DNA from: Thalassobaculaceae bacterium
Lineage (GTDB): Bacteria > Pseudomonadota > Alphaproteobacteria > Thalassobaculales > Thalassobaculaceae
Direction of reading: 5' to 3'
Length of the DNA stretch: 64,000 nt
NCBI GenBank assembly: GCA_965228875.1
Contig: OZ245843.1
Coordinates: 4,417,971 to 4,481,970, forward strand
Below are positions 8,318-28,530 of the stretch, in pieces. The translations under genes and the position numbers were made by a program. How positions within the stretch are numbered: position 1 is the stretch's first letter; each line of letters starts with the position of its first letter. The notes beneath the pieces are model-generated. The model had not been told where the DNA came from. It worked only from the letters and a program-made list of their open reading frames with translations, and ran no database searches.

Positions 8318-8331
8318 GGGCGGGCGGACAG

Positions 8332-11199: not shown

Positions 11200-11856
11200 A
11201 TGATCTGCAATCGCCGAGGATTTCGGGCAGGTGTTGTCGCGGCCGGAATCCTGTTCATGATCGGCGGCACCTTGCAGGCGGCCGACAAGAGCGTTCGGCA
11301 GTTCGGAGAGAGCGCGACCAAGTCTCAGATGCTCGACTATCTGCTGAACTCGCCGGCCCCAACAGCGGCCCCGGCGGCGGTCGATAGCGACCTGCTCAAA
11401 GGCCTGCCGGCCAGGGTCGATCCGAACAGCGTGGCGACGCGCGGCGGCATTCTCAAGCCGGAGCGCGCGACGCCGAGCGTGACGGCCCAGTCACCCTGTC
11501 CTGTGACGGACAAGGCGTTCGGTACAACCGTCAACTTCGCCGTCGGCTCCTACTATCTGGAGCCGTCGACCTTCTCGGTTCTGGGCGAGGTGGCCGACCT
11601 GATGACCGATGAGAAGCTGAAGGACTGCGCCTTCGTGGTCGAGGGACACACCGATTCCACGGGCAATCCGGATAAGAACAAGGTCCTGTCAAAGCAGCGG
11701 GCGGAGACGGTCGTGAAGTATCTCGAGAGCCATGGCGTGGCGGACTCGCGGATGGAACTCGAGGGCAAGGGGAGCACCGAGCCGGCGGACCCGGTCAATC
11801 CGGCGGCCGATATCAACCGGCGGGTCCAGTTCCGTTTCGTCGACCGTCAGGGCTGA
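11200..11856 (+). CDS. OmpA-like peptidoglycan-binding domain protein with signal peptide
   Basis: VNFAVGS...VEGHTDSTG...NKVLSKQRAETV...NRRVQF; GAGGAGG RBS. Confidence 0.92.
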   Translation: MICNRRGFRAGVVAAGILFMIGGTLQAADKSVRQFGESATKSQMLDYLLNSPAPTAAPAAVDSDLLKGLPARVDPNSVATRGGILKPERATPSVTAQSPCPVTDKAFGTTVNFAVGSYYLEPSTFSVLGEVADLMTDEKLKDCAFVVEGHTDSTGNPDKNKVLSKQRAETVVKYLESHGVADSRMELEGKGSTEPADPVNPAADINRRVQFRFVDRQG

Positions 11857-11900: not shown

Positions 11901-12491
11901 TCAGCCCGTCGGCCTGCGGTGTCGGGTGGTCAGCGCGCCGTCCGTGAGCGTGTAAACCGCGACCTGCTCCCCGGCATCCTCCTCGGCGACGAAGCCGGCC
12001 AGGGGGCCGAAGAACGGTGTCAGGGAATCCGGTGTACCGGTCTTCAGGAAAAGGTGCAGCGCCCTCGGATCGTAGTAGCGGAAGGCGAGGCTGCGCCCGT
12101 CCTCGGTCATCACGATGTTGAATTTCCGCAGGTGACGCCGCAGCGCCGTCAGCTCGAGCGGCGACAGGATGTAGATCCCCCAGGCCTGCCCCCAGCCGTC
12201 GCGCAGGAGCCAGTCGGCCAGCAGCGACCCCTCCTCGATTTCCATCAGGTAGGGCGCGACTTCCGCAAGATCCTCGGCCAGTTCGCCCTGGTAGAGCGAA
12301 CGGACCCCCGCGCCCGTTCCCTTCAGTTTGCGGTGGATCGCGGTGTCGCGGGCCGCATCCAATGCCGCGAACAGGCGCACGCCGCCGTTCCCCGATCGGG
12401 CGTCGCGCAGGATGTCGGCGAGCAACTGGCGTCGCGCCTCGATGATGTTGCGGGAAGGGACGCCGGCATCCGGCGTGCCGATCATGCTCAT
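11901..12491 (-). CDS. DUF4123 T6SS effector chaperone (Tap-1/TEC-like)
   Basis: LFAALDAAR...SLYQG...VAPYL...WGIY...LRRHLRKF...FRYYDPRAL; ATGA-coupled to vgrG. Confidence 0.9.
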   Translation of the reverse strand: MSMIGTPDAGVPSRNIIEARRQLLADILRDARSGNGGVRLFAALDAARDTAIHRKLKGTGAGVRSLYQGELAEDLAEVAPYLMEIEEGSLLADWLLRDGWGQAWGIYILSPLELTALRRHLRKFNIVMTEDGRSLAFRYYDPRALHLFLKTGTPDSLTPFFGPLAGFVAEEDAGEQVAVYTLTDGALTTRHRRPTG

Positions 12492-14542
12492 GCGCCGGCC
12501 TCCCCGCAGATCTCGCAGAACGGAGTGCCCTTGACGGCGGCCTCGCGCAGGGCCGCGATCTGGCTGACGCGCTTGCGGGTGCCGGTACCCTTCGGCACGG
12601 TCTTCGGGCTGGTCAGGTCGGTCGTCGCACCCGGCTGGCCGTCATCGGCTGCCGCGGGCGCGTCCGGCGCCTGCGGGTTTGCGCTCAGGCTGCCCGATGA
12701 GCCGCCGCTGTTGATGAGAACCATCGGGCCCTGGATGGTCACGCCGCTGGGCCCCAGCGTGATGAAGCCCGCGCCGGCCTTGATGGTCAGCATCATCCCG
12801 GCCTCGATCATCACCTCCATGCCGGCCTTCACCGCGTAGTTCGTACCGGCCTTGGCGTGGAATTCCTGGGCGATGTCGAGGGAGTCGATACCGCCGATCC
12901 GGGTTGACCGGTCGCCACCGACATCTTCGTGCTGGTCGCCGCCGACCTTCTCGAACCGATCGTTGACGACGGTCTCGTGATGCTGGTCGCCCACATGGCT
13001 CCGCAGCGTCTCCTTGATCCGGAGGTCCATGTCCTTCTGGCCGTGCACGAAGATCTGCTCGCTACCGGCCTTGTCCTCGAACCGCAATTCGTTGAACCCG
13101 CCGCCGCCGGGAGAGGAGTTCGTCTTGATCGTCGAGCGGGTCTTGTGACCGGGCGGATCGTAGACCGGTTCGTTGACGGCGTTGTGGACGACCCCGGTGA
13201 TTAGCGGCCGGTCGGGATCTCCCTCCAGGAACGAGACGGCGACCTCCATGCCGATCCGCGGGATGAAGGTCTGGCCGAAGCGGATACCCGCCCATCCCTG
13301 GGCGACCCTGATCCAGCAGGAGCTCTTCTCGTCGTAGGCGCCGCGCCGATCCCAGTGAAACTGCACCTTCACCCGGCCGTGCCTGTCGACGTGGATCTCC
13401 TCGCCGCCCGGACCGGTGACGATGGCGGTCTGCAGGCCGTCGATCGTCGGTTTCGACGTGACCCGCGGAGCGCGGAACTGGGTGTCGGCGGGAATGCACT
13501 CGAAGGTCCCGCGGTATCGGGCGCCTCGCGGTTCGCCGAACTCCCAGTTGTTCTCCGCTTCGTGGGCGACGCGGGTGACAAGGTGGGAGACGTTGTAGCC
13601 TTCCACCTCGTGCTCGACGAGGTCGAAGGTGAAGCCTGGACAGATGGTGAACTCGTTGGTGGTTCCGGTCCGCATCCGACTGCGCGCCTCGAGGGCCTCC
13701 ATCCGGACCGAGGCGAAGGTGTCGCCGTCGCTCATCTCGCGGTAACGGCCGGGATAGTCGAAGACCTCCAGATCCTGGGCCGCCGGCAGGCCGGCGTTCG
13801 ATCCGATCCCGGCGATCAGCGAGGCCCGCGGCTTGAGCGGGTCGAAGTCGTTGAGCGTGACCCGGCCCGAGGTCACGCTTGCCACCTCCCGCCATTCCGA
13901 CACGCCGGACTCGTCGTCCCCCATCTCCTGGCGGGCCGCCCGAAGGGTGGCGCCACCGGCGATCGGCTGGTGCGCCATGGCCGTGTCGGCGAGCACCAGC
14001 GTGTGCCGGTCGTCCTCATGCTCGAAGTAGTAGTAGATCCCCTCTTCCTCGAAGAGCCTGGACAGGAAGGCGAACGAGGTCTCGCGGTACTGGACGCAAT
14101 AGGTCCGGTTGGCGAAGGCGCCGGACGTCTCGACGCGGAAATCGGTGAAGTTCATCTCGCCGAAGATCTCCTCGGCGATGGCGATCACGGATTTCTCCTG
14201 GAAGATCCTCGAGTCGGCCCGCAGCGACAGGAACCAGAACCAGGGACGCAGCGTGAGGGAGTAATGGTGGACCTGGTCGCTCTGCCGATAGCCGTCATAC
14301 TCGAAGGCGGCGACATACCCGTGAAAGTGCCGGTCGCGGCCCTCGACCGTCGTCAGCGTCACCACCGCCGGCAGCCCGAGAATCTCCGACGGGTCCGCGA
14401 TCGGATCGAGGGCGAAGGCCCGCACCCGGAACGCGAACAGTTCCGAGAGCGCTTCCTCGCCGGCCACCGATACGGCGAAGAGCCGGTCCGGTCCGAGCGG
14501 GGTGGCCATCCGCAGCAAATGGCTCGACTGGGCTCGATCCAT
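12488..14542 (-). CDS. vgrG: T6SS spike protein VgrG
   Basis: YCVQYRETSFAFLSRLFEEEGIYYYF, GRVKVQFHWDR, SCWIRVAQGWAG, PRIGMEVAVSFLEGDPDRP, FNELRFEDKAGSEQ; short C-terminal extension ending PFCEIC; start set at MDRAQSS. Confidence 0.97.
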   Translation of the reverse strand: MDRAQSSHLLRMATPLGPDRLFAVSVAGEEALSELFAFRVRAFALDPIADPSEILGLPAVVTLTTVEGRDRHFHGYVAAFEYDGYRQSDQVHHYSLTLRPWFWFLSLRADSRIFQEKSVIAIAEEIFGEMNFTDFRVETSGAFANRTYCVQYRETSFAFLSRLFEEEGIYYYFEHEDDRHTLVLADTAMAHQPIAGGATLRAARQEMGDDESGVSEWREVASVTSGRVTLNDFDPLKPRASLIAGIGSNAGLPAAQDLEVFDYPGRYREMSDGDTFASVRMEALEARSRMRTGTTNEFTICPGFTFDLVEHEVEGYNVSHLVTRVAHEAENNWEFGEPRGARYRGTFECIPADTQFRAPRVTSKPTIDGLQTAIVTGPGGEEIHVDRHGRVKVQFHWDRRGAYDEKSSCWIRVAQGWAGIRFGQTFIPRIGMEVAVSFLEGDPDRPLITGVVHNAVNEPVYDPPGHKTRSTIKTNSSPGGGGFNELRFEDKAGSEQIFVHGQKDMDLRIKETLRSHVGDQHHETVVNDRFEKVGGDQHEDVGGDRSTRIGGIDSLDIAQEFHAKAGTNYAVKAGMEVMIEAGMMLTIKAGAGFITLGPSGVTIQGPMVLINSGGSSGSLSANPQAPDAPAAADDGQPGATTDLTSPKTVPKGTGTRKRVSQIAALREAAVKGTPFCEICGEAGA

Positions 14543-14705
14543 GTGAGGTCCGCTTCTCCCTGAGCCGGGTCTCGGTCGCATCATATCCAGGGCCGGGGGC
14601 CTCGGCCATAGATCGAATGTCTCGGGGTGGTGTAGCGCAAGTTGCGCGTTTCCTCTACAAGTTCCCCGGATCGTTGGGGTGGCAGTTCTTATTCTGGAGA
14701 GCACG

Positions 14706-17216
14706 ATGACCCGGAACGGTAGATCCTCAACCGCCACCGGCCGGACCGGCCCGTTGGGGCGTGGCCTGCTCGTCGGGGCCGCCTTCCTTGTCGCCCTGGG
14801 GGTCGGTGTCCGAGTGTCTCCAGAAGGCGCCGCGACCGTCGCGGTCAGCACGGCCGAGGCCCAGGGGGCGAGGACGATGCTGCGCAACAGCAGCCGGGTG
14901 GTCCGCGACGCCATCCGCAACCAGATCCGCCAGGCGCTCACCGTGCGCCTGCGGGTCCAGGCGCCGCCGCGGGCGGAGGTCCAGCGGGTCGAATGGTCGT
15001 CGGACGGCACGATGGCCGCGGCCTTGCTCGCCGACGGATCGGGCGACGTCTGGTTTCTCGATCAGGGCGCCACCCTGCGGCTGCCGGTTCTCGGGGCTCC
15101 GCCTTTCCGCGACGTCGTGCTCTCGCCGGGCGGCGGCGGGTTGGTGGCCGTGATCGACCGCGACGACCGGGTCGCGATCGCCACGCTCGGCGCCCCGGCG
15201 CGGCGCGGTCCGACCGATTTTCCGGGCGGTCGTCCGGTGGCGCTGACGCCGCGCGGCGACCGCGCGGGCGTGCTGGTGTCCACCGTCGGCGGTACGGTGG
15301 TCGAGATCGGCGTCGACGGCTCCGCCAGGCGGCTCTGGTCCGCCGATGGCGGTACCATCGACGGGATCGACGCCGATTCCGATGGAGACCGCGTCGTCGT
15401 GCATGCCGATGGCCGGGTCGTCGAGCTGGCGATCGGACCGTCAGGACCGGCGACGGTCGAGGAAACCTGGCGGCTGACCGGCGTGCGGGATGTTGTCTAT
15501 GCGGCCAGTGGCCCGGTGGCGCTCCTGGACGATGGGACGGTCCATCGGCTGTCATCGGACGGCACCCGGTCCGCCGCCGAAAGTCCTGTGTCGGGAGACC
15601 GGCTTCTGGCGTCCGACGACGGCGCCTTCGCCGTGCTGACCGATGACGGCGACGGGGCGGTCTGGCCCGGAACGGGGAATGCCCGACCGGCCCGCTTCGC
15701 CATCGGTGCCGAGAATGTTGCCGAGGCGACGCTGACTCCGGGCGCCGCGCTGGTGATGGTGCGGCGGGAGAATGGCTGGGTCGACGGACATGACGTTGCC
15801 ACGGCGGCCGGCGGCCGGGTGCTGCGCATGGTCGCCACCCGCTCCGGCTGGGCCGCCGTGGATAGCCGCGGGCGCTATGACGGATCCTTGGACGCCCTCA
15901 CGGAGGTCGGTTGGGGCGACGACGGCACCTTCATCGAGTTGGAGCGGTTCGCGGAACTGTATTTCGAGCCAGGCCTGGTTCGCCGCTACCTGGCGCGTCG
16001 GCGCGATTTTCTGACCGCGCCGCCGGAACCGATTGTCGACGACACCGAGATCGCGGCGCCGCCGGAGGTGTCGGTGTCCGTGGACCGGGCGCCGGCCACG
16101 GCCGGACAGGCCCTCGTCGCCTCCGGATCCGTCACGTCCCCCGAACCGGTGGTCGAGGTGCGGGTGTTCCACAACGGCCGCGCCCTGCCGCCCGAGGCGG
16201 TCGTCACCGGTACCAGTGACGACGGCGGTGTTCAGACGGTCACCGTGACGACCGACACGCAGGCGAGCGAGGGGGAGAACACCCTCCAGGTCGTTGCCCA
16301 GACCGAGTCCGGCCTGGTCACGGCATCCGATGTGCAGACGGTCACGGTGGCGCCGCCGCCGGCCCCGCCTCCGGCACCCCGCCTGGTGGTCAAGAGTTTC
16401 GGGATCAACGACTACGCCAGCCCTGAGCTGAAACTGAATTTCGCCGCCGCCGACGCGGAGGCCATCGCCGACCGGTTCTCCCGGTCCGAGGTGTTCGAAC
16501 CCTCCTACCGGACCAAGGACGTCTATCTGGATTCCAATGCCGGACGGTCCACGATCCTCGGTCAGATGCAGAGCCTGCAGTCGCTTGGCGCCGACGATAT
16601 GGCCGTCATCTTTCTGTCCGGTCACGGGGTGGCGACCCCTGACCTGGGCGACTGGTACTTCCTGCCCTACGAGGCCCGCAGCCTGAGCGATCTGGACCAC
16701 ATCGCCGGGGTCGGGATCAGCGACGGCTTTCTCGTCTCGGCGATCACCGATCTCAAGGTCGACCGGGTGCTGCTGATGATAGATAGCTGCCAGTCCGGCG
16801 TGGTCGCCGACGAGTTCTCGCGCTACCGACAGCGCCGCTCCCTCAAGCGGATCGCCGACCGCACCGGAATACAGATCCTCACGGCGACCCGGCCCGACCA
16901 GCTAGCACTGGAGGTGCGCGAACTCGGCCATGGCCTCTTCGCCTATGTCGTGCTTGCCGCGCTCGATCGCGACTCGCGCGGACGCTACCGCGCCGATCTG
17001 GGGCCGATCGACGGACGTGTCTCGGTCGCCGAACTGAGGTCCTACGTCGAGACGAACGTACCGGTGGTGGCCCAGACACTGATGGAGGCGATGGGTCGCA
17101 GCGGACAGGGAACGCAGGTCGCCTCGGCTGCATCCACCCGGACCCGCGGCGGCGCCGGGACGAGCGTGGTGATGCCGGTCTCGGCGGCCTATGGCCGGAA
17201 CTTCACTGTCTACTGA
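14706..17216 (+). CDS. Exported beta-propeller (WD40-like) plus caspase-like peptidase C14 protein
   Basis: Signal peptide ending AEA-Q; repeat-rich middle; Ig-like segment (VRVFHNG...GENTLQVVA); C14 domain GINDY...LNFAAADA...FLSGHG...IDSCQSG...GHGLFAY with catalytic His and Cys intact. Confidence 0.88.
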   Translation: MTRNGRSSTATGRTGPLGRGLLVGAAFLVALGVGVRVSPEGAATVAVSTAEAQGARTMLRNSSRVVRDAIRNQIRQALTVRLRVQAPPRAEVQRVEWSSDGTMAAALLADGSGDVWFLDQGATLRLPVLGAPPFRDVVLSPGGGGLVAVIDRDDRVAIATLGAPARRGPTDFPGGRPVALTPRGDRAGVLVSTVGGTVVEIGVDGSARRLWSADGGTIDGIDADSDGDRVVVHADGRVVELAIGPSGPATVEETWRLTGVRDVVYAASGPVALLDDGTVHRLSSDGTRSAAESPVSGDRLLASDDGAFAVLTDDGDGAVWPGTGNARPARFAIGAENVAEATLTPGAALVMVRRENGWVDGHDVATAAGGRVLRMVATRSGWAAVDSRGRYDGSLDALTEVGWGDDGTFIELERFAELYFEPGLVRRYLARRRDFLTAPPEPIVDDTEIAAPPEVSVSVDRAPATAGQALVASGSVTSPEPVVEVRVFHNGRALPPEAVVTGTSDDGGVQTVTVTTDTQASEGENTLQVVAQTESGLVTASDVQTVTVAPPPAPPPAPRLVVKSFGINDYASPELKLNFAAADAEAIADRFSRSEVFEPSYRTKDVYLDSNAGRSTILGQMQSLQSLGADDMAVIFLSGHGVATPDLGDWYFLPYEARSLSDLDHIAGVGISDGFLVSAITDLKVDRVLLMIDSCQSGVVADEFSRYRQRRSLKRIADRTGIQILTATRPDQLALEVRELGHGLFAYVVLAALDRDSRGRYRADLGPIDGRVSVAELRSYVETNVPVVAQTLMEAMGRSGQGTQVASAASTRTRGGAGTSVVMPVSAAYGRNFTVY

Positions 17217-18138
17217 AGCCTGCCCCGCCGAGGCCCGCCGGCTTGCGCCGTCGGCACCGGGCCCGAGCACGCGAGGCCACCGGCCGGCAGGTTGGTGGGG
17301 CCTGCTGGGGGTGGCGATCGCCATCACAATGGCAGTGTCGGCCTGTACGGGGGGCGGCGATCGGGCCGTGAGCCGCGGAGGCCTGCATGCGCGCGCGACC
17401 GAAGCCGGGTTTCGGGATCTCGGCGCCGCGCGGGTCGGGTTGCCGCTGGTGGCCTATCTACGGGATAGAGCCGGTGGTTCGGCGCCCCCGCATCGCCTGA
17501 CGGTGTATATCGAAGGCGACGGCGCCGCCTGGCGCACCCGGACGCGGGTGTCCGACAATCCGACCCCGCGCGATCCCGTCGCTCTGGCGCTTGCGATCCG
17601 ACAGCCTTCCGGTTCGTCGGCCTATGTCGGCCGACCCTGCCAGTACGTGAACCTCGCCGGGGTCTTCTGCCCGGCCTCATTCTGGACCGACGGCCGTTAC
17701 GGCCGGGAGGCCGTTGCCCTCGTCGGGCGCGCGGTCGATCTTGCGATGGCGGCCGCCGGCGCCGACGAGGCCGTTCTGGTCGGGTTTTCCGGCGGCGGAA
17801 CGCTTGCCACCCTGCTTGCCGCCACGCGCGACGACGTCGTTCACCTCATCACCGTCGCGGCGCCGCTGGACATTTACGGGTGGACGGGGTTCCACGGCGT
17901 GTCGCCGCTCGCCGCCTCGCTCGATCCGCTCGACTACATGGCCGCGCTGTCGGCCGTCGCCCAGGATCACTTCGAGGGAGGCTCGGACGCGGTCGTCCCG
18001 CCCCGGGTCAATGACCGCTTCTTCGAGCGGTCGCGTACGGCGACGGTGATGCGGCACCGCATGGCTGAGTTCGATCACACGTGCTGCTGGGCCGAAGCCT
18101 GGCCGTCCCTATACGGTCGCGTCGTCCGGAGGCGATAG
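17191..18138 (+). CDS. Alpha/beta hydrolase, probable lipoprotein (start uncertain)
   Basis: Lipobox-like AVSAC; VYIEGDG, GRPCQY, nucleophile motif GFSGG, D and H(TCCW) candidates. Confidence 0.82.
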   Translation: MAGTSLSTEACPAEARRLAPSAPGPSTRGHRPAGWWGLLGVAIAITMAVSACTGGGDRAVSRGGLHARATEAGFRDLGAARVGLPLVAYLRDRAGGSAPPHRLTVYIEGDGAAWRTRTRVSDNPTPRDPVALALAIRQPSGSSAYVGRPCQYVNLAGVFCPASFWTDGRYGREAVALVGRAVDLAMAAAGADEAVLVGFSGGGTLATLLAATRDDVVHLITVAAPLDIYGWTGFHGVSPLAASLDPLDYMAALSAVAQDHFEGGSDAVVPPRVNDRFFERSRTATVMRHRMAEFDHTCCWAEAWPSLYGRVVRRR

Positions 18139-18221
18139 CGATGGCACGGCGCCGCCATTCCATTTGAACGGCCTGAGCAAAGCCGTGTAAGGTTGAGTTG
18201 CCACCATCTGTTGCGTACTGC

Positions 18222-18251
18222 CGGTCGTCCTCGGGGCGGTCGTCCTCGGGG
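18222..18251 (+). repeat. Perfect 15-bp tandem duplication upstream of tssBC
   Basis: CGGTCGTCCTCGGGG at 18222-18236 and 18237-18251. Confidence 0.85.
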
Positions 18252-18259
18252 GGACACAC

Positions 18260-20191
18260 GTGCGGTCCAGAGCCAGGCCTTATGACGTTCCGGACCTCAA
18301 GGTTCATCTGACCTATCAGTCCGAGGTCGATGGTCGAGAGGTCGAACTGCCGTTCGTCGTCGGCGTGGTCGGCGCGTTCCGCGGGGAACGGGACGATGCC
18401 CGTGAACCGGTGTATGAGCGCGAGTTCGAGGACGTCTCCGAGCGCGGTGTGGATGTTCTGCTGGCGCGGTGGAAGCCGCAGGTCAGTGTCGCGGTGCCCG
18501 ACCGGGCGGGCGGTGGCGCGCAGGCGGTAGCGCTGCGCTTCGCCGGCTTGAAGGACTTTCAACCCGAGGCTTTGATCCGCCAGGTGCCGGCGCTCGCCGA
18601 TGACCATCGGACCCGCGACATTCTCGTCGATCTGAGGGATCGCCTGATGACCGCGGCCGGGCCGCGCCGTATGGCCTATGGCGCCGGAACGCTGGCGGAC
18701 GATACCGTCTCGGAGGACGACGCCGCGCTTGTGGAGATCCTGGCGACGGCGGTGGATGCAGCCCGCGCCGCGTCGCCGCGCACCCCGGAATACCGGGAGA
18801 CCATCGACCGGGCGGTGGACGGAATCCTGGCCGGGATCGGCGACCTGTCGGTACGAACGGTCATGGAGGCGATCGACCTCGACGTCGCGGAGATCGACGC
18901 GGCGTTGTCGCGGCGGTGCGATGCGATCCTGCACGATCCCGGGTTCCAGCGGTTGGAGGCGCTCTGGAGAGGTGTGGACCTGCTGGTCCGCCGCGGCGAT
19001 TCCGACCCGCTCGTCATCGTGAAGGTGCTCGACCTCACCCGCGAGGAACTGGAACAGGATCTGTCGACCCACATCGCGCCGGACGACTTCCAGCGCGCCG
19101 CCGTTCTCGATTCCACGCTCTTCCGGATCATCTATTCAGAGGAGTTCGGCCAGTTCGGCGGCCACCCGTTCGGCCTGATCCTGCTGGACGAGTACATCAC
19201 GCCCGCCGCGACGGATGTCCGCTTGGCCGAGCGTCTGGCCACGATCGGCGAGGCGGCCCATTGCCCGGTCATCGCCGCTGCCGCGCCGGAGATGTTCGGA
19301 ATCCCGGCGTACTCCGACCGCGATTGGGGGCACGGCGATCTGCGGTCGCTCTTCGGCGAGGCCCGCTACGCCGAATGGCGGGCCCTGCGTCAGAACCCCG
19401 TGTCGCGATATCTGGGTCTGGTCCTCCCGCGGTTTCTGCTGCGCGACCCCTATCGGTCGGCCGGACGCCAGACCATGCCCTTCGACTTCGAGGAAAAGGT
19501 GGCCGACGGGGACGGTCTGCTCTGGGGCAATGGCGCCTTCGCCTTCGCCCTGACGGTGGTTTCGGCTTTTGCGCGCTACCGGTGGTGCACGGCGATCACC
19601 GGTCTGGAGGGTGGCGGGGCGGTGAGCGGGCTCGTCGCGCCGGACTACGGCACCGACGAGGGCGCCCACGTCTTCCGTCGCGCCACCGAGAGGGTGATCT
19701 CGACCCGTCACGAGCGCGATCTCGCGGTGGCCGGGTTCATACCGCTGGTGCAGCGGCCGGGTCAGGCCGAGCCGGTGTTCTGTTCGGCCTTCTCGGTCAA
19801 CCTGCCGTCGGGGCGCCTGGGCATGGATCCGATGTCGGAGCGGCTTTCGGCGCGCCTGCCCTACATGTTCGCCGCATCGCGTATCGCTCACTACGTCAAG
19901 GCCAACATGCGGGAGCGGATCGGCGGTCAGGCGAGCATGAGCCGGCTTCAGTCCAACGTCAGCCGCTGGATCTCCCAGTATGTGGCCTATCAGGACGACG
20001 TGGACGACGAGGTCAAGGCGGAGCGTCCGCTACGCGATGCCCGCGTCACCGTCCTTCCCTCGGAAGACGAGCCGGGACGGTTTACTTTCCGTATGGAGGT
20101 CCAGCCGCATTTTCAACTCGAGGAAATGGGGATAAATTTGGTCGTCGGCCGGCTGGCGGAGAGCGTCGAGGACAACCAGGGCGGGCATTAG
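18260..20191 (+). CDS. tssBC: Fused T6SS contractile sheath protein TssB-TssC (VipA-VipB)
   Basis: N-terminus KVHLTYQ...ELPFVVGVVGAF...LRFAGLKDFQPEALIRQVP is TssB-like. It continues in frame into EIDAALSRRCDAILHDPGFQRLEALWRG...EEFGQFGGHPFG...LPRFLLRDPY...LWGNGAF...LPYMFAASRIAHYVK...RPLRDARV...PHFQLE, which is TssC-like. Confidence 0.9.
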   Translation: MRSRARPYDVPDLKVHLTYQSEVDGREVELPFVVGVVGAFRGERDDAREPVYEREFEDVSERGVDVLLARWKPQVSVAVPDRAGGGAQAVALRFAGLKDFQPEALIRQVPALADDHRTRDILVDLRDRLMTAAGPRRMAYGAGTLADDTVSEDDAALVEILATAVDAARAASPRTPEYRETIDRAVDGILAGIGDLSVRTVMEAIDLDVAEIDAALSRRCDAILHDPGFQRLEALWRGVDLLVRRGDSDPLVIVKVLDLTREELEQDLSTHIAPDDFQRAAVLDSTLFRIIYSEEFGQFGGHPFGLILLDEYITPAATDVRLAERLATIGEAAHCPVIAAAAPEMFGIPAYSDRDWGHGDLRSLFGEARYAEWRALRQNPVSRYLGLVLPRFLLRDPYRSAGRQTMPFDFEEKVADGDGLLWGNGAFAFALTVVSAFARYRWCTAITGLEGGGAVSGLVAPDYGTDEGAHVFRRATERVISTRHERDLAVAGFIPLVQRPGQAEPVFCSAFSVNLPSGRLGMDPMSERLSARLPYMFAASRIAHYVKANMRERIGGQASMSRLQSNVSRWISQYVAYQDDVDDEVKAERPLRDARVTVLPSEDEPGRFTFRMEVQPHFQLEEMGINLVVGRLAESVEDNQGGH

Positions 20192-20319
20192 GGACGGGCG
20201 ATACCGGACAGGCCGGGATCGGTCGGGCCCGGCCCGCCCGGATCCGATACCGAAGACGGGGCGGCGCAGCGCACGTGTCGCGTCGAACCGACCATCTTGC
20301 TGGGACGAGACCATAGGCC

Positions 20320-20826
20320 ATGGCGTATTCCGCTTTCGTGCAGTTCGAGGGGATCGAGGCGACCACGTACGACCCACGGTATCCGGGTGCGGCCCGGCTC
20401 ATCGCCTTCGACCAGATCATGCAGCAGCCGACCGCGGGCTCGGCGGTCGCCGGCGGGGAGGCGACGGCCGGGCGGGTCGATCATGGCGACTTCAACCTCG
20501 TGAAGGCGATCGACGCGGCCAGCCCGATCCTGTCGCTGTACTGCAGTTCGGGTGCGATCGTCTCGAAGGTGACGATCTCGGTCGCCGAGGAGTCGGAGGA
20601 TCTGCTGCCGTTCTACGAATTCGTTCTCGACCGTGTGCTGGTACGCTCGATCCAGCCGGCGCTGAAACTTGAGTTCGGGCACGCCAACGAAGCGATTGCC
20701 CCGTACGAGACGATCAGCCTACGGTACCAGAAAGTCACATGGCGCTATACGTTCCTCGACAATGACGAGAGTGGCCGGGGAAGCATCCAGCACTACTGGG
20801 ACCTCTACAAGAACCGAGGATCCTAG
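20320..20826 (+). CDS. hcp: T6SS tube protein Hcp (TssD)
   Basis: GRVDHGDFNLVKAIDAASPIL...PYETISLRYQKVTWRY...YWDLYKN. Confidence 0.92.
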   Translation: MAYSAFVQFEGIEATTYDPRYPGAARLIAFDQIMQQPTAGSAVAGGEATAGRVDHGDFNLVKAIDAASPILSLYCSSGAIVSKVTISVAEESEDLLPFYEFVLDRVLVRSIQPALKLEFGHANEAIAPYETISLRYQKVTWRYTFLDNDESGRGSIQHYWDLYKNRGS

Positions 20827-20949
20827 AGCACGAGCGGTTCGATCTTGTCCGTGAACCGTCCTCTAACGCATTGAAGACAGGGTAGAGTCACACGATCGGA
20901 CGTCTTCATGTGATCGTGGTCTGCGCTGGCGGGTTTCGAGGGATATGCG

Positions 20950-21438
20950 ATGGACTACTATCTTAATCTGCCGTCCCTGGTCGACTCGCTGATCGACGAC
21001 GCGCCGGATCAGCCGTGGGACGGTTTCGAGCCTCCGTCCCTCGCCCGTCTGGAGCAGTGCCTGCGGCGTGACCTCGAGGAACTGCTGAACAGCCAGGCCC
21101 TCTTTCCGCGGTTCCAGGGGCGCCATGCGGATCTTGCCAGGACGACCGTCGCCTTCGGGCTGAGCGACCTCTATCGGGTCAACCCGTCGAGCCGGCAGCA
21201 CCGTGAACGGCTGCGCCGCGAGATCGAGGAGAAGATCGCGACCTTCGAGCCACGGCTCCATGACGTTCGCGCCCTTGAGGTGCAGATGGCGCCGGGCAAC
21301 GAACTGCGGCTCGAGTTCCGCGTCGAGGGGACGTTGCGGTTCATGCGGGAGGAGGTGCCGATCTCCCTCTCGGCTCGACTGAACGCGGCGGATAACCGGG
21401 TGGTTATTCATCGTTTCGCCGCAGGGGATGGACGGTGA
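20950..21438 (+). CDS. tssE: T6SS baseplate subunit TssE (gp25-like)
   Basis: PSLVDSLIDD...RRDLEELLNS...FGLSDL...IATFEPRL. Confidence 0.92.
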   Translation: MDYYLNLPSLVDSLIDDAPDQPWDGFEPPSLARLEQCLRRDLEELLNSQALFPRFQGRHADLARTTVAFGLSDLYRVNPSSRQHRERLRREIEEKIATFEPRLHDVRALEVQMAPGNELRLEFRVEGTLRFMREEVPISLSARLNAADNRVVIHRFAAGDGR

Positions 21439-23318
21439 GCGGAAAACTCTTCGACTATTATCAGACGGAACTGGACAAGCTGCGCGACTACGGCGAGCGG
21501 TTCGCCGAGGAGTATCCCAAGGTTGCCGGCCGGCTGCAGCTTTCTCGGACGGCCGCCGCCGATCCGCATGTCGAGCGCCTGATCGAGTCCGTGGCGCTGA
21601 TATCGGCCCGCCTGCAGCTCAAGATCGACGATGACTTCTCCCGGGTCTCCGAGGCGCTGCTGGAGCACATCCATCCGCACCTCGCGCGCCCGGTTCCGTC
21701 CTGCACGATCGTCCGCTTCGAACCCGATGCGGCGTCGATGTCCGGCGAGATGGAGGTTCCCAAAGGGGCGATGCTGTCGTCGGTCGCCCTGCGGTCCTCC
21801 GTGGAGATGGCCGGGCTCTCCTGTCAGTTCCTCACCGTGTATCCGACTCAACTGCTGCCGGTCGCGATCGACGCGGTGTCGTTCGCACCGGTGCGCGGCG
21901 CCTCGCTGGTATCGGGAGACGAGGTGGTCGACGGCGTCCTGTCGATCTCGTTGAGCCGGCCCGGCGCGGCGGCGCTCGGCGACCTGGACGTTTCGCGTCT
22001 GCGGCTGTTCGTCGACGGCGAGGCCGACACGGCCAACATGCTCTACGAGATGCTGATGTCGGCATCCGTCGGCGTCTTCGTCAGGACCGAGGGCCCGGAT
22101 GGGCCGCAGACGCGGCGGCTCAGGGATGCGGGTTTCGAGCCGGTCGGCTTCGCCGCCGAGGATGCGCTGCTGCAGTACGACGCGCGCTCCCATGCGGGCT
22201 ACCGGATGCTCCAGGAGTTCCTCGTGTTTCCGGAGAAATTCCGGTTCGTGGACCTGGTCGTGCCGGGCGGGCTGTTTCTCGACGAGCGAGCGACGGCCGA
22301 GATCCTTATCACCACCGCTCCGTTCCCGAGACAGGAGTGGGCGTCCCGGCTCTATGGCCGGATCGGTACGCGCAATCTGCAACTCGGTTGCACGCCGGCG
22401 GTCAACCTCTTTCCGGTGTCCGCCCAGCCGATCCGGATCGAACCCGGCAGGGAGAGGTACCCGGTGCTTCCGGACACGCGGCGGGCGCGCGGCATGGAGA
22501 TCCAGGCGATCCGGGAGGTCATGGTCGTGCGCCGCGGCGGTACCGTGCGCCGGCAGCGGCTCGTGCCGCTGTTCGGGGTTCCCGATCCGCATGCGGTCGC
22601 GGACCATGGTGGGGCGCCGGCGGACGCGCTGCCGCGCTGGACCTACGAGCGGGAGCCGGCGGTCGCGGGCGAGGGAGACCAGCACTTTCTGTGGCTGATC
22701 GATCCGGACCTGGCGGTGCTGTCCCATGGCGATGCCGTTGCGTCCGTCGAGGCGTACTGTTCGAACGGTGACCTGCCGGCGATGCTGCCGTTCGGGAATC
22801 CGGCCGGCGATTTCAGCTACGGAGAGAACGTTCCGGTCCTGGCGATCACTTGCGTGACCAGGCCGACCCAGACGGTTCGACGGGCGCGCAACGACGGTGA
22901 GTTCTGGCGCCTGGTGTCGAACCTGACGCTGAACTACACATCGCTGGTCGATGCCGGTGGGCTGGGCCTGCGGCAGATCCTCCAGGCCCACAACCTGTTC
23001 GATCCCGGCGTGATGCCGGGAGAAAACGCCGAGGCGTCGCGGATGATCGACGGCATTACCGGCGTATCGGTGGAGCGGGCGGTCGAGCGCATGGGCTCCG
23101 CGGCGCGCCGCGCCTTCGTTCAGGGCGCGCGGATCCGGCTGACGCTGGACGAGGCGGCGTTCCCCGGGAGCGCGTACCTGTTCGCCGCGGTGATGGAGCG
23201 GTTCCTGTCGGTGCTCGCCGGCGGCAACAGCTTCACCCAATTGGTGGCGAAATCCACCCAACGCGAGAAGGAGATCGGCGCATGGCCATGCCGCGCGGGC
23301 GACTTCCCGATCGTATAG
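21435..23318 (+). CDS. tssF: T6SS baseplate subunit TssF
   Basis: YYQTELDKLR...FAEEYPKVAGRL...DPHVERLIES...GYRMLQEFLVFPEKFRF...LGCTPAVNLF...WRLVSNLTLNY...NSFTQL. Confidence 0.96.
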   Translation: MSGKLFDYYQTELDKLRDYGERFAEEYPKVAGRLQLSRTAAADPHVERLIESVALISARLQLKIDDDFSRVSEALLEHIHPHLARPVPSCTIVRFEPDAASMSGEMEVPKGAMLSSVALRSSVEMAGLSCQFLTVYPTQLLPVAIDAVSFAPVRGASLVSGDEVVDGVLSISLSRPGAAALGDLDVSRLRLFVDGEADTANMLYEMLMSASVGVFVRTEGPDGPQTRRLRDAGFEPVGFAAEDALLQYDARSHAGYRMLQEFLVFPEKFRFVDLVVPGGLFLDERATAEILITTAPFPRQEWASRLYGRIGTRNLQLGCTPAVNLFPVSAQPIRIEPGRERYPVLPDTRRARGMEIQAIREVMVVRRGGTVRRQRLVPLFGVPDPHAVADHGGAPADALPRWTYEREPAVAGEGDQHFLWLIDPDLAVLSHGDAVASVEAYCSNGDLPAMLPFGNPAGDFSYGENVPVLAITCVTRPTQTVRRARNDGEFWRLVSNLTLNYTSLVDAGGLGLRQILQAHNLFDPGVMPGENAEASRMIDGITGVSVERAVERMGSAARRAFVQGARIRLTLDEAAFPGSAYLFAAVMERFLSVLAGGNSFTQLVAKSTQREKEIGAWPCRAGDFPIV

Positions 23319-24430
23319 CCGAGCGCCTGCGGGAGGCGCCGGAGACGTTCGGCATCCTGCAACTGGCGCGGCTGGTGTCTCTCGTGCGGGCCGGCGGCCC
23401 TGAACGGAGGTTTCCGGGTGGGGTTCGATACCGCTCGAACCCGGCGCTCGATTACCCCGTCGCGGCGGTGGAGGCGGTCGAAGAGGAGCCCGACGGTGGC
23501 TGGACCGCCGACGTCAACCTGATCGGCACGCTCGGGCCGAACGGAACGCTCCCGTGGCACTACAACGAGCAGATCGTTCGCCACGAGCAGACCGTTGTGG
23601 ACGGCCGGCGTCCCTCGATCCGCGCCTTCTACGACATATTCGACCACCATTTCGCCGAACTGCTCTGCGCGGTGCTCGCGCGCCGCCACCTCGCTCTGGC
23701 GGTCGAGCGCGGCGAGGAGCGCGGTCTGGAGCGGGTGCTGAACAGCGTTGCCGGGATCGGTCTGCCGGCGGTGCGCGATGTGTTTCGCGATACGCAGACC
23801 TTCCGGGTTCGACAGCTTCAGCGCTTCGCCGGCCTGCTCGGCCGTACGCCAAGCTCGCCCCAGGCGGTGTCGCAGATGCTCACGGCGATTCTCGGCGTGC
23901 GGGTGGAGGTCCGGCCGTTCGAAGGGCACTGGACCTATCTTCCGCCGGCGTCGCGGGCGCGGCTCGGGCGCAGGAGCGGTAGCCGGACACGCGGTGGGTC
24001 GGGCGCGCGCGCGCCCCGACTGGGCGACTGGCCGACACTCGGCGGGCGGGTCTGGGGCCTTCAGGGGGCCATGGGCGTCCGGGTCGGACCGCTGAGCGGC
24101 GCGGAGTTCGCCCGGTTCCTTCCGAACGGCCGGGGCCGGTCCCTGATCTCCGCCGCGCTGGTCCAGGAACTCATTCTGTTCCTTCGCCTGACGCTGGGGG
24201 CGAACTACGACTACAAGATCAATCTGACGGTCGCGCGCGAGGCGATCCGGGGCACTCGGCTGAGGCAAAGGCCCGCGCGGGGAGCGCAGGCCGACGGTGT
24301 GCCCGGCGAACTTCCGCCCCTTCTCGGTCTCACGACCTGGGTCAGCGGCAGGCAATCGCGGGATCGGGACGACCCGGTGCTGTGGGTCGGTGGATGGCAG
24401 AAACTGGAGGTAGGGGCGTCTCATGGATAG
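23282..24430 (+). CDS. tssG: T6SS baseplate subunit TssG
   Basis: GILQLARL...LGPNGTLPWHY...AFYDIFDHHF...VRPFEGHW...VGPLS; overlaps the tssF 3' end as usual. Confidence 0.9.
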   Translation: MAMPRGRLPDRIAERLREAPETFGILQLARLVSLVRAGGPERRFPGGVRYRSNPALDYPVAAVEAVEEEPDGGWTADVNLIGTLGPNGTLPWHYNEQIVRHEQTVVDGRRPSIRAFYDIFDHHFAELLCAVLARRHLALAVERGEERGLERVLNSVAGIGLPAVRDVFRDTQTFRVRQLQRFAGLLGRTPSSPQAVSQMLTAILGVRVEVRPFEGHWTYLPPASRARLGRRSGSRTRGGSGARAPRLGDWPTLGGRVWGLQGAMGVRVGPLSGAEFARFLPNGRGRSLISAALVQELILFLRLTLGANYDYKINLTVAREAIRGTRLRQRPARGAQADGVPGELPPLLGLTTWVSGRQSRDRDDPVLWVGGWQKLEVGASHG

Positions 24431-25895
24431 TCTTCGGCGCGTGTTTTGGAGTGACGGCCTGTTCCTGACGCCGCAGGTGTTTCAACAGCAGGACGCCTTC
24501 CACATCGGCATGTGGCGGGTGCTATGGCGTGCGCTCGGCCCGAACTTCTGGGGGATCCGCCACATCGAACTCCACGAAGAGGGGCTTCGGGCCGGCGATT
24601 TTAGTGTCGCCAAGCTCGACCTCGTCACCCGTCAGGGCGACGTGGTGCGCTACGGCATCGCAGGTCGCGAGGACAACTGTGTCGTCCGGGCCCGTCACTT
24701 CGGCAGCGCCCTGACGCCGGGGCAGACGGAGGTGAACGTCTACCTGGCGATCGCCGTGCGCGACGGTCACCGCAGCAACATCATGGACCGCTCGCAGGAG
24801 GCCGAGGCGGACGGTGCCGTGGCACGGTTCGTTGCCGGCGAACGCGAGGCCAGCGACGATTTCCACCCGTCTTCGTCCGAGCCGTCGATGCTCGATCTCG
24901 CCGATTTCGTCGTGCAGTTCCTGATCGATACGGATCCCGGTTTCTCCACCGCGAGCAGCCGCTACGACTGCTTCCACCTGGCGCGACTGCGGCCGGTCGG
25001 CGGCGGAGCGGAACCGGTTCAGAGCTTCGTCCCGCCGGTGATGATGCTCGGCGCCTCACCGGCGCTGAGCCGCCTGGTTCGCAACATGTGCGCGGAGGTG
25101 ACGCGACGGACCCTGGAATACGAGGAGATCAAGAACGAGCGCAGCGACGTGAAGGGGCAGGAGTCCTCGGCCCGCGACGCTCTGGTGAAGTCCATGCTGC
25201 TGGTCCTCAATCGGGCCAACGCGGAGTTCCGGATCCTGCAGTCCAGCCTGGACCGCGACCACAACAGCATGAGCGCGCATCCGGAGGACGTGTACAACCG
25301 CGTGCGGGTTCTGATCTCGGAGCTGTCGACCTTTTCGACGGCCGTGGGCTCCGATGGAACGATCACCGTCGGCGACAAGCCGGTTCCGCTGCCGGACTAC
25401 GATCACGAGGACCCCTATCCCGTCTTCGAGAAGCTCTCCAGGGCGCTGGAGCGTGCTCTCAACGCACTGGTCATCAACCTCGAAGGCCAGGTGGAGCTGA
25501 AGTTCGACGGCCAGCACTACGCCGCCGACCTTCCGGAGACGTTCTTCGGCGGACCGAAGGCGATCTACTATCTCGCCGTGGATGCCGAGAACCGCTCCCG
25601 CGACCGGGTCTTCAGTGACGTGCGGGACCGGATCTACAAATTGTCCAGCGGACAGATGGCGGAGCGGATCATCGAAGTGAACGCTCCGGGCATCGACATG
25701 GAGCCGCTGCAGGACATGCCGGTGGAGTTGTCGTTGCTGACCCGACGCTATGCGTGTTTCCGGATCGACAAGGGACATCCGGACTGGCGCAACGTGGAGA
25801 ACGACAAATCGATCAAGTTCCTGGCCAAGGAAATCGACCCGTCCGAGGCCAAGATTCTGATCATCCAGTCCGAGCCGGACCGGCGGCTCGATTAG
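24423..25895 (+). CDS. tssK: T6SS baseplate subunit TssK
   Basis: VFWSDGLFLTPQVFQQQD...FWGI...FVPP...HPEDVY...YDHED...PGI...PVEL...FRIDKGHPDW. Confidence 0.92.
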   Translation: MDSLRRVFWSDGLFLTPQVFQQQDAFHIGMWRVLWRALGPNFWGIRHIELHEEGLRAGDFSVAKLDLVTRQGDVVRYGIAGREDNCVVRARHFGSALTPGQTEVNVYLAIAVRDGHRSNIMDRSQEAEADGAVARFVAGEREASDDFHPSSSEPSMLDLADFVVQFLIDTDPGFSTASSRYDCFHLARLRPVGGGAEPVQSFVPPVMMLGASPALSRLVRNMCAEVTRRTLEYEEIKNERSDVKGQESSARDALVKSMLLVLNRANAEFRILQSSLDRDHNSMSAHPEDVYNRVRVLISELSTFSTAVGSDGTITVGDKPVPLPDYDHEDPYPVFEKLSRALERALNALVINLEGQVELKFDGQHYAADLPETFFGGPKAIYYLAVDAENRSRDRVFSDVRDRIYKLSSGQMAERIIEVNAPGIDMEPLQDMPVELSLLTRRYACFRIDKGHPDWRNVENDKSIKFLAKEIDPSEAKILIIQSEPDRRLD

Positions 25896-26031
25896 GATCA
25901 AGGCGGTGTGCGCTAAGTAGCATTGACGATAGTTCGCTGGCGGAGTTCCCTAAGTGCGGGAAAATCTATCCGGCGGAGTTTGAGGCAGGGACTATTCGTG
26001 GCGCGTCGAACCGGGCGTGGGATGGGGGAGC

Positions 26032-27054
26032 ATGGCCGACAGTCAGACGGGCGCCGAGGCGCCGAAGGAAACGGACGGCGAGGCGGTACCCGCCGAGGGG
26101 CAGGAAGCCGCCGCGGCGTCACCACCTGCAGCGGCGTTCTCGGAGAATATCGCGGCGATCGACAGGACCACGGCGGCGGCGGTTGCGACGCTGCGTCGGG
26201 CGGAGCCGAAGCACAAGGGATCGGACCCTCTCTACAACATTCCCTGGTATCTGTTCCTCGGCCCCTCGTCGGAGTCCGTGGAACAGCTGCTGCGCGCGGT
26301 GCCGAACGGCGACATCCTTGCGCCGGGGCAGGCGGAGCCGGCGGGCGAGACGCTTCGCTGGTGGAACCTGCGACGGGCGATCGGTATCTCCTGGCCTTCA
26401 ACGCTGCTCTGCTCCCATGACGACCGGGAACGCTGGCAGGTCGTGGAGCATGCGATGGAATCGCTGCTCAAGGCGCGCAAGCATCTGCCGGTGAACGGGA
26501 TCGTGGTCGTGGTTCCGGTCGCCGACCTCGTCGACGGGTCGGGGCGGCTCGACAGACTGGCGCGGGTGATCCGCGATATCGTCAACGAGATGCGGACCAC
26601 GCTTAAGTTCAGCTTTCCGACGACGGTGGTCGTCACCGGCCTGGATCGGCTCACGGGACATGACGCGTTCTTCGGTGGCCTCGACCGGACCACGGAGCAG
26701 GCGCTCGGGATCCGGCTGGACGATGCCATGCGGCAGGCGGATGTCAGGGCGACGATGGCGACCACCTTCGCGCAGTGGCGCGACCGGCTGCACGAGATCC
26801 GCATGTCGCTGCTGCGGCAGCCGGCCGAGAAGGTCGACATGCGGGGGGTGTTCCGGTTCATCCCCGAGTTCGAGCGGCTGGAGGCGCCGCTGGCGGCACT
26901 GGTCGAGACCCTGTTCTCCGAGAGTCCGGGAGACAACCGGCGACCGCAGTGGCGGGCGCTGTATCTGACGGCGCCGGGCAGCAGGGAACCGCATCTCAAG
27001 GACCTGTTCGATCACTTTCTTCCTGTCGACGCCTCGCTCGCGACGCGGGCGTGA
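26032..27054 (+). CDS. tssM: Truncated TssM/IcmF: cytoplasmic NTPase-like domain only
   Basis: DPLYNIPWYLFLGP, PVNGIVVVV, FPTTVVVTGLDRLTG...FF, WRALYLT, LKDLFDHFL..DASLA match the IcmF N-terminal domain. No TM segment; stops before the periplasmic region. Confidence 0.78.
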   Translation: MADSQTGAEAPKETDGEAVPAEGQEAAAASPPAAAFSENIAAIDRTTAAAVATLRRAEPKHKGSDPLYNIPWYLFLGPSSESVEQLLRAVPNGDILAPGQAEPAGETLRWWNLRRAIGISWPSTLLCSHDDRERWQVVEHAMESLLKARKHLPVNGIVVVVPVADLVDGSGRLDRLARVIRDIVNEMRTTLKFSFPTTVVVTGLDRLTGHDAFFGGLDRTTEQALGIRLDDAMRQADVRATMATTFAQWRDRLHEIRMSLLRQPAEKVDMRGVFRFIPEFERLEAPLAALVETLFSESPGDNRRPQWRALYLTAPGSREPHLKDLFDHFLPVDASLATRA

Positions 27055-27120: not shown

Positions 27121-28530
27121 ATGACCGAACGACGTAGCCTTCTGGACGTGTTCACCCCGGTGATGCTGGACGTCCTCGATGTCGAGGATGGCCTCGCCCG
27201 GGGCGATGGCAGCGTGCCCTCGGCGGAGCAGAAGACGGAGGAATGGCTGGCGACGATCGACGAGGCGGTCGCCACGGCCGAACGCCTCGGCCACAGCAGC
27301 CAGAACGCAGAGATCGCCAAGCGTGCCGTGATCGCCTGGATCGACGACATCATGGGGCTCCGGCGGGACTGGTACGGCCGGGTCACCAACCTTCAGTCCC
27401 GCGTGTACAACGGCGCCTCGGTGCTCGGCCGAAAGTTCTACGAGGACCTGGAGGCCCTCAGCAAGGACAGTCAGAGAGACGTCTTCGACGTGTTCTTCGT
27501 CTGCCTCGCCCTCGGCTTCAAGGGAGAGAAGCTCCTGTACGCCGGATCCGACGTGGACCGCGAGGCGGCCCGCCTCAAGCAGGATGTCAGTTTCCACCTG
27601 TCGACGGACCGCATCGATCTCGACAGGCTGCCCGGCCAGAAGATCTTCGCCCAGCCCTATCAGCAGGACGACCCGCCGCCGCCGCCGCCGGGCCCGCCTC
27701 TGCCGCGATCCTATGGCAAGATCCTTGCTGCGCTGGCGGCGGTTCTGTTGCTGGCGGCGATCGGCGCCGGGTACTGGCTGACCCGGAGCGAGACCGACTG
27801 GCGGGCGCATATCCAGGCGGCGGCCGAGGAGGCGGTTGGGCGCTACGAATGCGCCAGCGTCTCGGTCCGGACGGCGCCGGACCTGTCGCTGTCCTACAAG
27901 GGTTTCGTCGGGTCGGAGGACGATCGCGGCGCGCTCGAGGCGGACCTGCTGGGCATCGAGCGGGTGGAGCGGGTCACCGGCACGCTTGAGGTCATGCCTT
28001 GGCCGCTTTGCGCCGTGCTTGTGATCCTGGAGGATACGGTGCTCAACGACGGTTCCCGGTCGGAGACTCCGACGGTTGCGGTCAACCATCGTGACGGGAG
28101 GTATCGTCACCGCGACCTCCTGGTCACTGACGTGACGGTGCCGGCGGCGGAGCCCGGTCACCTTCTGGTCAGCTATGTCGGGCAGGCGGACACCGTCACC
28201 CATCTGTTCCCGAACGAAGACGTCGTTTCCAGCCGGGCCGATCCGAAGATGCGATTGCGCCTCGGATACGCGGAAGGCGCGGCCTCCGATGCCGGCGGGT
28301 ACGATGTGCAGACCAACCTCATGTATCCGCTGTCGGCGGACCCCGAAGGGCCCAGTCTGGTGTTCGCTGTCTGGAGCGCGGAACCGATCCTCGACGGCTT
28401 CGCGCCGGTGTCGCAGCAGCGGACCGACGAGTTCCTTGCGGCGCTCCGCGCGGCTGTGGATGCGTCCAATGCGTCGGACGACGCCGCCAGGCTCTATGCC
28501 CGCACGGTGACGATCACCGTGGCCCGGTAG
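27121..28530 (+). CDS. tssL: TssL/DotU fused to a periplasmic Cys-paired/DUF4384-like module
   Basis: AKRAVIAWIDDIM...LQSRVY...GRKFYEDL...VFFVCLALGFKG (DotU); poly-Pro; TM helix; then YEC...GFVGS...PWPLC...YRHRDLL...VSYVGQADTVTHLFP. Confidence 0.85.
   Translation: MTERRSLLDVFTPVMLDVLDVEDGLARGDGSVPSAEQKTEEWLATIDEAVATAERLGHSSQNAEIAKRAVIAWIDDIMGLRRDWYGRVTNLQSRVYNGASVLGRKFYEDLEALSKDSQRDVFDVFFVCLALGFKGEKLLYAGSDVDREAARLKQDVSFHLSTDRIDLDRLPGQKIFAQPYQQDDPPPPPPGPPLPRSYGKILAALAAVLLLAAIGAGYWLTRSETDWRAHIQAAAEEAVGRYECASVSVRTAPDLSLSYKGFVGSEDDRGALEADLLGIERVERVTGTLEVMPWPLCAVLVILEDTVLNDGSRSETPTVAVNHRDGRYRHRDLLVTDVTVPAAEPGHLLVSYVGQADTVTHLFPNEDVVSSRADPKMRLRLGYAEGAASDAGGYDVQTNLMYPLSADPEGPSLVFAVWSAEPILDGFAPVSQQRTDEFLAALRAAVDASNASDDAARLYARTVTITVAR

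Follow-up and report, generated by a model that had tools for sequence, protein, structure and literature searches.

Must the contractile sheath of a type VI secretion system (T6SS) be built from two proteins? It is treated as a TssB/TssC heterodimer, with a surface domain that exists for recycling by the unfoldase ClpV, in reviews (PMC10433429; this paper, PMC4632598 and PMC5048182 are drawn on here in excerpt) and in the solved structures matched below. The question is raised by one gene, tssBC, in a 64,000-nucleotide stretch of DNA (the window) from a Thalassobaculaceae bacterium (GenBank assembly GCA_965228875.1, contig OZ245843.1, forward-strand positions 4,417,971 to 4,481,970). The T6SS cluster that contains tssBC, with VgrG, Hcp and TssE/F/G/K/L (12488–28530), has no other sheath gene. 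We found that its fusion of TssB with TssC is real and natural, and sequence comparison makes it probable that the product is a single-chain sheath protomer which fires without dedicated recycling by ClpV. The open reading frame (ORF) and its parts, in amino acids (aa) of the product, are as follows.

18260..20191, plus strand: tssBC, fused TssB-TssC sheath protomer, a single ORF of 643 aa with a GTG start
18287..18655, plus strand: TssB/VipA part, aa 10–132 (PF05591, profile positions 4–130 of 155)
18665..18871, plus strand: junction region, aa 136–204 (BLASTP against the split pair of the same genome)
18881..19798, plus strand: TssC/VipB core, aa 208–513 (PF05943, E 1e-87, 294 bits)
19835..20140, plus strand: TssC C-terminal gpW/gp25-like domain (VipB_2), aa 526–627 (PF18945, E 1.6e-33, 116 bits)

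The ORF listing shows 18260..20191 as uninterrupted, with no internal stop, and the product reads as TssB followed by a complete TssC, just as the original prediction had it. The VipA (T6SS_VipA, PF05591; E 1e-23, 84.3 bits against a cut-off of 24) and VipB domains lie within this one ORF together with VipB_2, the gpW/gp25-like domain, which is the inner-layer part required for sheath building. These three were the only Pfam families detected at E <= 0.01, with no phage tail-sheath family among them. The product also passes the NCBIfam equivalog for TssC (TIGR03355; aa 178–628, 405.5 bits against a cut-off of 271.5). Among solved structures it matches the canonical T6SS-i chains 3j9g, 5mxn, 5ojq, 5myu, 5n8n, 5urw and 9n4v; by phmmer, the E-values against these chains are 4e-87 to 2e-76 for the TssC part and 7e-9 to 7e-5 for the TssB part, both parts aligning near full length, and the solved chains matched by the TssC part include VipB, TssC and IglB. 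It had further been claimed that the window holds no separate tssB, and a whole-genome search with PF05591 agrees, since it returned four TssB-like places, of which the one in the window is tssBC itself.

The stretch is contained, whole or in part, in 20 of the 24 listed sequencing runs (12 studies). Four runs were compared over tssBC, the best-matching run being omitted as a possible source, and support at the junction is that of assembled contigs, not of raw reads. Contigs from two other studies (31,473 and 3,366 bases) span 18100–20400 unbroken, with no gaps and with 25 and 32 substitutions, and shorter contigs of the remaining two runs bridge 18626–18998, so that the place at which an assembly error had been feared (about 18640–18720) is crossed; no insertion or deletion was found across tssBC in any of the four. 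Contigs of several studies keep the stretch at about 98.6–98.9% identity. The natural variants inside tssBC comprise 26 synonymous and 12 nonsynonymous changes and no stops (38 of the 40 listed differences, with 20 further ones unlisted), and full-length 643-aa members of its 99%-identity protein cluster are present in three further assemblies.

The canonical sheath genes of this genome, which lie elsewhere in a cluster with ClpV, TssA, TssJ/K/L/M, TagF and a kinase, are split into TssB (165 aa) and TssC (495 aa) and show by BLASTP what the join has done. Residues 11–135 of the tssBC product correspond to TssB 9–129, and residues 205–619 to TssC 68–478; therefore, 69 junction residues replace about 103 canonical ones (TssB 130–165 plus TssC 1–67), making the region about 34 residues shorter, and the TssB part lacks the last ~35 residues of canonical TssB. 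The short linker described in the original prediction is thus a join between the two parts, as stated, but by these alignments it is what is left, in shorter form, of TssB's tail and of the N-terminal region of TssC rather than an added spacer. The junction is also the least conserved part of tssBC (15–28% identity to the members of its clade, described below), compared with 36–50% for TssB, 36–63% for the TssC core and 42–81% for the C-terminal domain, the most conserved part; 54 of the 69 junction residues are absent from one clade member.

Both the VipA and the VipB families were found in 6 of the 120 best word-indexed matches to the product, including a 625-aa protein with 58% identity and a 644-aa one with 57%. 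The 58%-identity cluster has four members of 625–641 aa, and the fused orthologues are annotated by JGI as 'ImpC'. Eight fusions were combined into a profile, and its search of 1.84 billion representatives gave 11,730 matches at E <= 0.001, and fusions were counted among the 150 best of these (50%-identity cluster representatives). TssB and TssC occurred in one protein in 132 of the 150 and in the order TssB-then-TssC in 130, which answers the call of the original prediction for a search for other fusions. The spacing between the two parts in these 130 varies widely (median 75 aa, range -2 to 583; 25 aa or less in 22). In 38 of the 130 (P0125, P0171 and P0173 among them) the N-terminus is extended by more than 100 aa, with protein lengths up to 2151 aa. 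The ESM Atlas has clusters of 56–281 members, most with both families. A homologue search limited to aa 1–140 returned two proteins and was too insensitive to enumerate fusions, and the long frames in genomes G267 and G119, taken at first for fusions, proved to be split genes. An orthologue of tssBC's own type was found neither in the species-level genome collection (36 pattern matches, no relatives) nor in 10 genomes of the same genus. By these protein counts, tssBC, itself conserved, is a member of a large and recurrent class and not a rarity. The class is apparently undescribed so far: the literature search, with subscription-only papers outside its scope, found no natural TssB-TssC fusions, only tagged or engineered constructs (PMC9601139, a candidate report, is unrelated), and the excerpt of the 2023 review treats TssB and TssC as separate and leaves natural fusions unmentioned (PMC10433429).

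A FastTree phylogeny of 250 TssC cores required 16 changes between the fused and split labels, as against 80.8 with shuffled labels; well-supported branches make at least 11 of the 16 unavoidable. In this tree tssBC falls in a six-member, all-fused clade (support 97), whose sister is a large clade with the genome's own split TssC; an IQ-TREE analysis of 74 rows gave strong support only for tssBC together with its two closest relatives. Placing all 45 fused rows of the latter tree in one group costs 360.7 log-likelihood units (p-AU 5e-85); this group was named after the first tree had been seen, and it is defined by a trait independent of the tree. The label changes and the p-AU value therefore indicate that fusion or fission occurred several times, and the varied junctions would fit repeated fusion. 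The direction is not given by these trees, which are unrooted and built on a sample in which the query favoured fusions. Of the derived single-subunit sheath that had been put forward, the single subunit stands (the cluster has no sheath gene besides tssBC, which keeps both the TssB N-terminal part and the TssC C-terminal domain), whereas unrooted trees cannot show it to be derived.

The original prediction also held that ClpV recycling would be altered or absent, and comparison among loci and genomes points the same way. Pfam and NCBIfam searches found no ClpV, TssA or TssJ in the window. The comparison of flanks was confined to loci flanked on either side by 8 kb or more, and a phmmer match of at least 400 bits within 10 kb was scored as ClpV-like; such a gene was present at none of 15 fused loci versus 67 of 70 split loci, the compared loci being kin. 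The fused gene is the sole TssB match in six genomes, namely G039, G041, G042, G044, G045 and G109 (completeness 95, 98 and 98% for three, with no figure for the other three), and none of the six has a ClpV over the TIGR03345 cut-off. Three of them (G039, G042 and G044; 0.9–1.9 Mb) had no ClpB- or ClpA-like match either, the best reaching about 20 bits; the G042 locus is titled Holosporaceae and that of G044 uncultured Alphaproteobacteria. The fusions of G045 and G109 sit in clusters with Hcp, TssF, TssG and VgrG, to which G109 adds TssE. The three genomes in which fused and split sheaths occur together all have ClpV, which lies beside the split genes in the present genome (G000) and in G317. 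In an even sample of 401 genomes of the phylum (two ClpV candidates scored per genome), 91 had TssB and 83 had ClpV, all 83 being among the 91; ClpV was found in 81 of 87 split-only and in neither of two fused-only genomes. The view that fusions go with the absence of ClpV is supported by these gene distributions.

AAA+ unfoldases prefer free termini. In the T6SS sheath, surface domain 3, which is T6SS-specific and formed by three N-terminal VipB and two C-terminal VipA helices, serves recycling by ClpV (PMC4632598), which binds TssC's N-terminal helix, each ClpV being specific for its own TssC (PMC5048182); V. cholerae without ClpV still kills (PMC4632598). From the location and function of domain 3 in these papers, the join in tssBC would therefore fall in the only domain able to tolerate it, which is also the one on which ClpV depends. 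We propose that i) the TssB part supplies the N-terminal arm, and the TssC part the core and the C-terminal inner-layer domain, ii) the fused protomers, judging from their conserved domains, would still fit together around the Hcp tube, on a baseplate of TssE/F/G/K and VgrG, and contract, iii) the covalent join would lie within domain 3, the carrier of the ClpV handle in split sheaths, and iv) contracted sheaths may be removed through general proteolysis, the action of another unfoldase, or dilution. Since domain 3 is shortened and poorly conserved and leaves no free TssC N-terminus, firing without dedicated ClpV recycling appears most likely. Fusion would be tolerated, and would recur, exactly where ClpV is unused, perhaps because the need for a free TssC N-terminus has gone. 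More tentatively, fusion of the sheath subunits might be a recurrent marker of ClpV-independent T6SS: selection might keep the split solely because ClpV has to take hold of a free TssC N-terminus and thread it, and without ClpV the genes might fuse repeatedly while the surface recycling domain decays.

Two other fused frames occur among the four TssB-like places of this genome, which also has ClpB-like and ClpA-like genes.

L025:208-1989 = G000:C1:1940208-1941989, plus strand: degenerate fusion of 593 aa, VipA-like aa 24–111 and VipB-like aa 295–493 (Pfam)
L006:1123-3582 = G000:C1:4533826-4536288, minus strand: second complete TssB-TssC fusion, about 793–820 aa, ~100 kb from the window

The 593-aa fusion lacks VipB_2 and lies next to the canonical cluster of split genes and ClpV, being transcribed divergently from its tssA. 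The second complete fusion has an Ala/Glu/Lys-rich insert of ~156 aa between its TssB and TssC parts, and its cluster contains TssA, TssL, Hcp, TssE/F, VgrG, a DUF2169-pentapeptide protein, a PAAR-like protein and a 1348-aa TssM-like protein (IcmF_N match only), with no ClpV. It belongs to another part of the tree, among split relatives at ~50% identity, e.g. those of Pseudomonas, Azotobacter and Paraburkholderia. Full fusions were found in 9 of the 80 best loci of this second type in the species-level genome collection; the record titles are SAR324, Woeseiaceae, Thiotrichales, Psychrosphaera, Holosporaceae (two), Alphaproteobacteria (two) and Pseudomonadota (one). Of 80 metagenome loci, 26 were fused, 22 of them of one lineage in which at least 8 contig names say human gut. 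This lineage (L039:9956-12121, plus strand, and 21 sister loci) has a 722-aa fused TssBC in an otherwise complete T6SS-i with TssJ, K, L, M-like, A, F and G, VgrG and PAAR, and no ClpV within 10 kb; in one of its short contigs (L036) the frame is broken. A 1723-aa frame in G080 (L195:12941-18109, plus strand) was considered as a full fused sheath beside ClpV and rejected; it combines a full TssB-like domain (aa 17–142) with a truncated, accessory-type TssB-TssC part (aa 1153–1610) and lies downstream of a canonical split cluster with ClpV.

Several observations weigh against a working single-chain sheath that dispenses with ClpV. The TssB part falls short of the TssB equivalog TIGR03358 (aa 10–130, 74.7 bits against a cut-off of 97.25), of which it covers only positions 7–131 of 160; the score is low because the C-terminal part of TssB is missing. 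The kinship of the compared loci leaves 3–4 independent contrasts, with which a sign test cannot reach significance (median p 0.5), and 6 of the 87 split-only genomes of the phylum sample lack ClpV as well. RNA runs containing the stretch were absent from those listed. The genome does possess a single ClpV over the NCBIfam cut-off, 2.5 Mb from the window and beside the split tssB/tssC, and a helix-like stretch of the junction (~151–181) is collinear with the canonical ClpV handle. Finally, the cluster has no TssA or TssJ and has TssM only as a stub, and it is possibly incomplete or reliant on other clusters.

The ClpV gene and the helix-like stretch would both be accommodated if the fused sheath were still recycled, with the genome's one ClpV gripping the now-internal helix, which keeps the canonical handle register, and threading a loop; the retention of ClpV in all three genomes with fused and split sheaths is in keeping with this. 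We consider such recycling unlikely. When the junction was aligned by hhalign with canonical TssC N-termini, the conserved core being excluded, the register was collinear but the likeness was not significant (E 0.11 versus 0.2 for the reversed control), and a 98% probability for the handle was discarded since it came solely from 30 conserved core residues that had been included. The region that would have to be gripped is the least conserved of the protein and has nearly been lost from one clade member, one bacterium's ClpV proteins did not cross-react with the TssC of its other system (PMC5048182), and a ClpV over the cut-off is missing from all six fused-only genomes.

The missing components would instead be explained if the cluster were a decaying or dependent T6SS, in which tssBC is intact and the machine is either non-functional or borrows TssA, TssM and TssJ from other clusters. 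The window holds neither TssA nor TssJ and, of TssM, only a stub of 345 aa; two TssA genes are present in the genome, both outside the window, and orthologues of the fusion were absent from the 10 genomes searched within the genus. This explanation also has little probability in our view, as the tail and baseplate frames are all intact with strong family scores, the natural variants are mostly synonymous, the stretch is conserved at the level given above across several studies' contigs, and orthologues at 57–58% identity keep the full-length fusion; as a lead only, IcmF_N-only proteins of a size similar to the stub recur as clusters in the Atlas.

That tssBC encodes an accessory, non-polymerising mimic of the sheath is suggested by the truncated 593-aa paralogue without VipB_2, which the same genome has beside its split pair and ClpV, but it is highly improbable, since tssBC keeps a complete VipB_2 and the full TssC core and adjoins no split tssB or tssC. 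An artefact of assembly or sequencing can practically be dismissed, as can an isolated recent stop-loss among split relatives: no support for either was found beyond the interrupted short contig L036 of an unrelated fused lineage, which indicates that breaks occur in low-coverage assemblies, whereas contigs from other studies carry no insertions or deletions, the 643-aa form recurs in the three further assemblies, and the five relatives nearest to it beyond its 99%-identity cluster are fused without exception.

The remaining genes around tssBC are listed below.

11901..12491, minus strand: DUF4123 adaptor/chaperone-like protein (PF13503, E 1e-29)
12488..15010, minus strand: vgrG, spike (Phage_GPD, Phage_base_V, Gp5_trimer_C)
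14679..17216, plus strand: caspase-domain (Peptidase_C14) protein, 845 aa (PF00656, E 1.9e-10)
17191..18138, plus strand: weak alpha/beta-hydrolase-like protein directly upstream of tssBC (Abhydrolase_1, 21.4 bits, under the cut-off)
20320..20826, plus strand: hcp, tube (PF05638, E 6e-23)
20950..21438, plus strand: tssE, gp25-like (PF04965)
21435..23318, plus strand: tssF (PF05947, E 1.6e-164)
23282..24430, plus strand: tssG (PF06996)
24423..25895, plus strand: tssK (PF05936; TIGR03353 at 223.5 bits)
26017..27054, plus strand: TssM N-terminal stub, 345 aa, IcmF-related_N only (PF14331)
27121..28530, plus strand: tssL/DotU with a long C-terminal extension of ~250 aa (PF09850, aa 7–217 of 469)

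The true start of the caspase-domain gene is probably downstream of 14679, because the ORF overlaps vgrG. This gene and the hydrolase-like gene, which lie between vgrG and tssBC (14679–18138), may encode effectors or regulators. A promoter/terminator scan of 17000–21500 found no sites, and a sigma-54-like pattern matched 47 times in the window, versus 50.5 expected, with no match directly upstream of tssBC. The TssM stub matches positions 68–363 of the 1168 of TIGR03348, under the cut-off, and is without the periplasmic part; the IcmF_N-only proteins in the ESM Atlas clusters are of 296–428 aa, and a 'mini-TssM' may be a recurring form. tssL is followed by five plus-strand ORFs (to 32960), of which one encodes a weak PHO4/phosphate-transporter-like membrane protein, while the four after it (234, 116, 467 and 236 aa) have no clear Pfam or NCBIfam family. 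The tssL extension and these ORFs (27121–32960) are candidate components of a non-canonical membrane complex or candidate accessory parts. The plus-strand region directly upstream of the pair DUF4123 and vgrG (7604–11856) encodes an ExbB/MotA-like protein, two ExbD-like proteins, a 609-aa protein without a family and an OmpA-like protein.

If fusion does prove a marker of ClpV independence, tssBC would stand for a widespread and unstudied class of single-chain T6SS, fired once or recycled in another way. A large single-chain class that goes with ClpV loss would account for the very existence of two separate sheath subunits, and it would offer ready-made natural constructs for contraction without recycling. 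On the same condition, this genome would provide a natural three-way comparison between a split sheath with ClpV and two independent fusions without it. Pipelines expecting separate tssB and tssC genes may mislabel such systems, and the occurrence of fusions in contigs named for the human gut and in small alphaproteobacterial genomes titled Holosporaceae suggests that their biology may matter beyond this marine or aquatic organism.

How, then, does tssBC compare with known sheaths? It shares with the canonical TssB/TssC of T6SS-i (VipA/VipB, HsiB1/HsiC1) the protein families, the domain order and the setting with hcp, tssE/F/G/K and vgrG, but differs in being one polypeptide, without the last ~35 residues of TssB and with no free TssC N-terminus, and in having a cluster without ClpV, TssA and TssJ. 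The IglA/IglB sheath of Francisella (T6SS-ii), a system that uses ClpB, works without a dedicated ClpV (PMC10433429). Its IglB (chain 3j9o) matches the TssC part of tssBC at E 4e-45; however, IglA and IglB are separate proteins, the tssBC product is much closer to T6SS-i sheaths, and, unlike in Francisella with its ClpB, three of the fused-only genomes do not have even a ClpB-like gene. The genome's own 593-aa fusion resembles tssBC in joining TssB-like and TssC-like parts in one chain, but is truncated, without VipB_2, and sits beside split genes and ClpV, whereas tssBC is complete and alone. The sheaths of contractile phages, R-pyocins, extracellular contractile injection systems (eCIS) and the Amoebophilus T6SS-iv have one protein per protomer and no recycling domain in use. 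tssBC differs from these single-chain sheaths in that it is a join of a T6SS-type TssB and TssC which retains a remnant of the T6SS-specific surface region.

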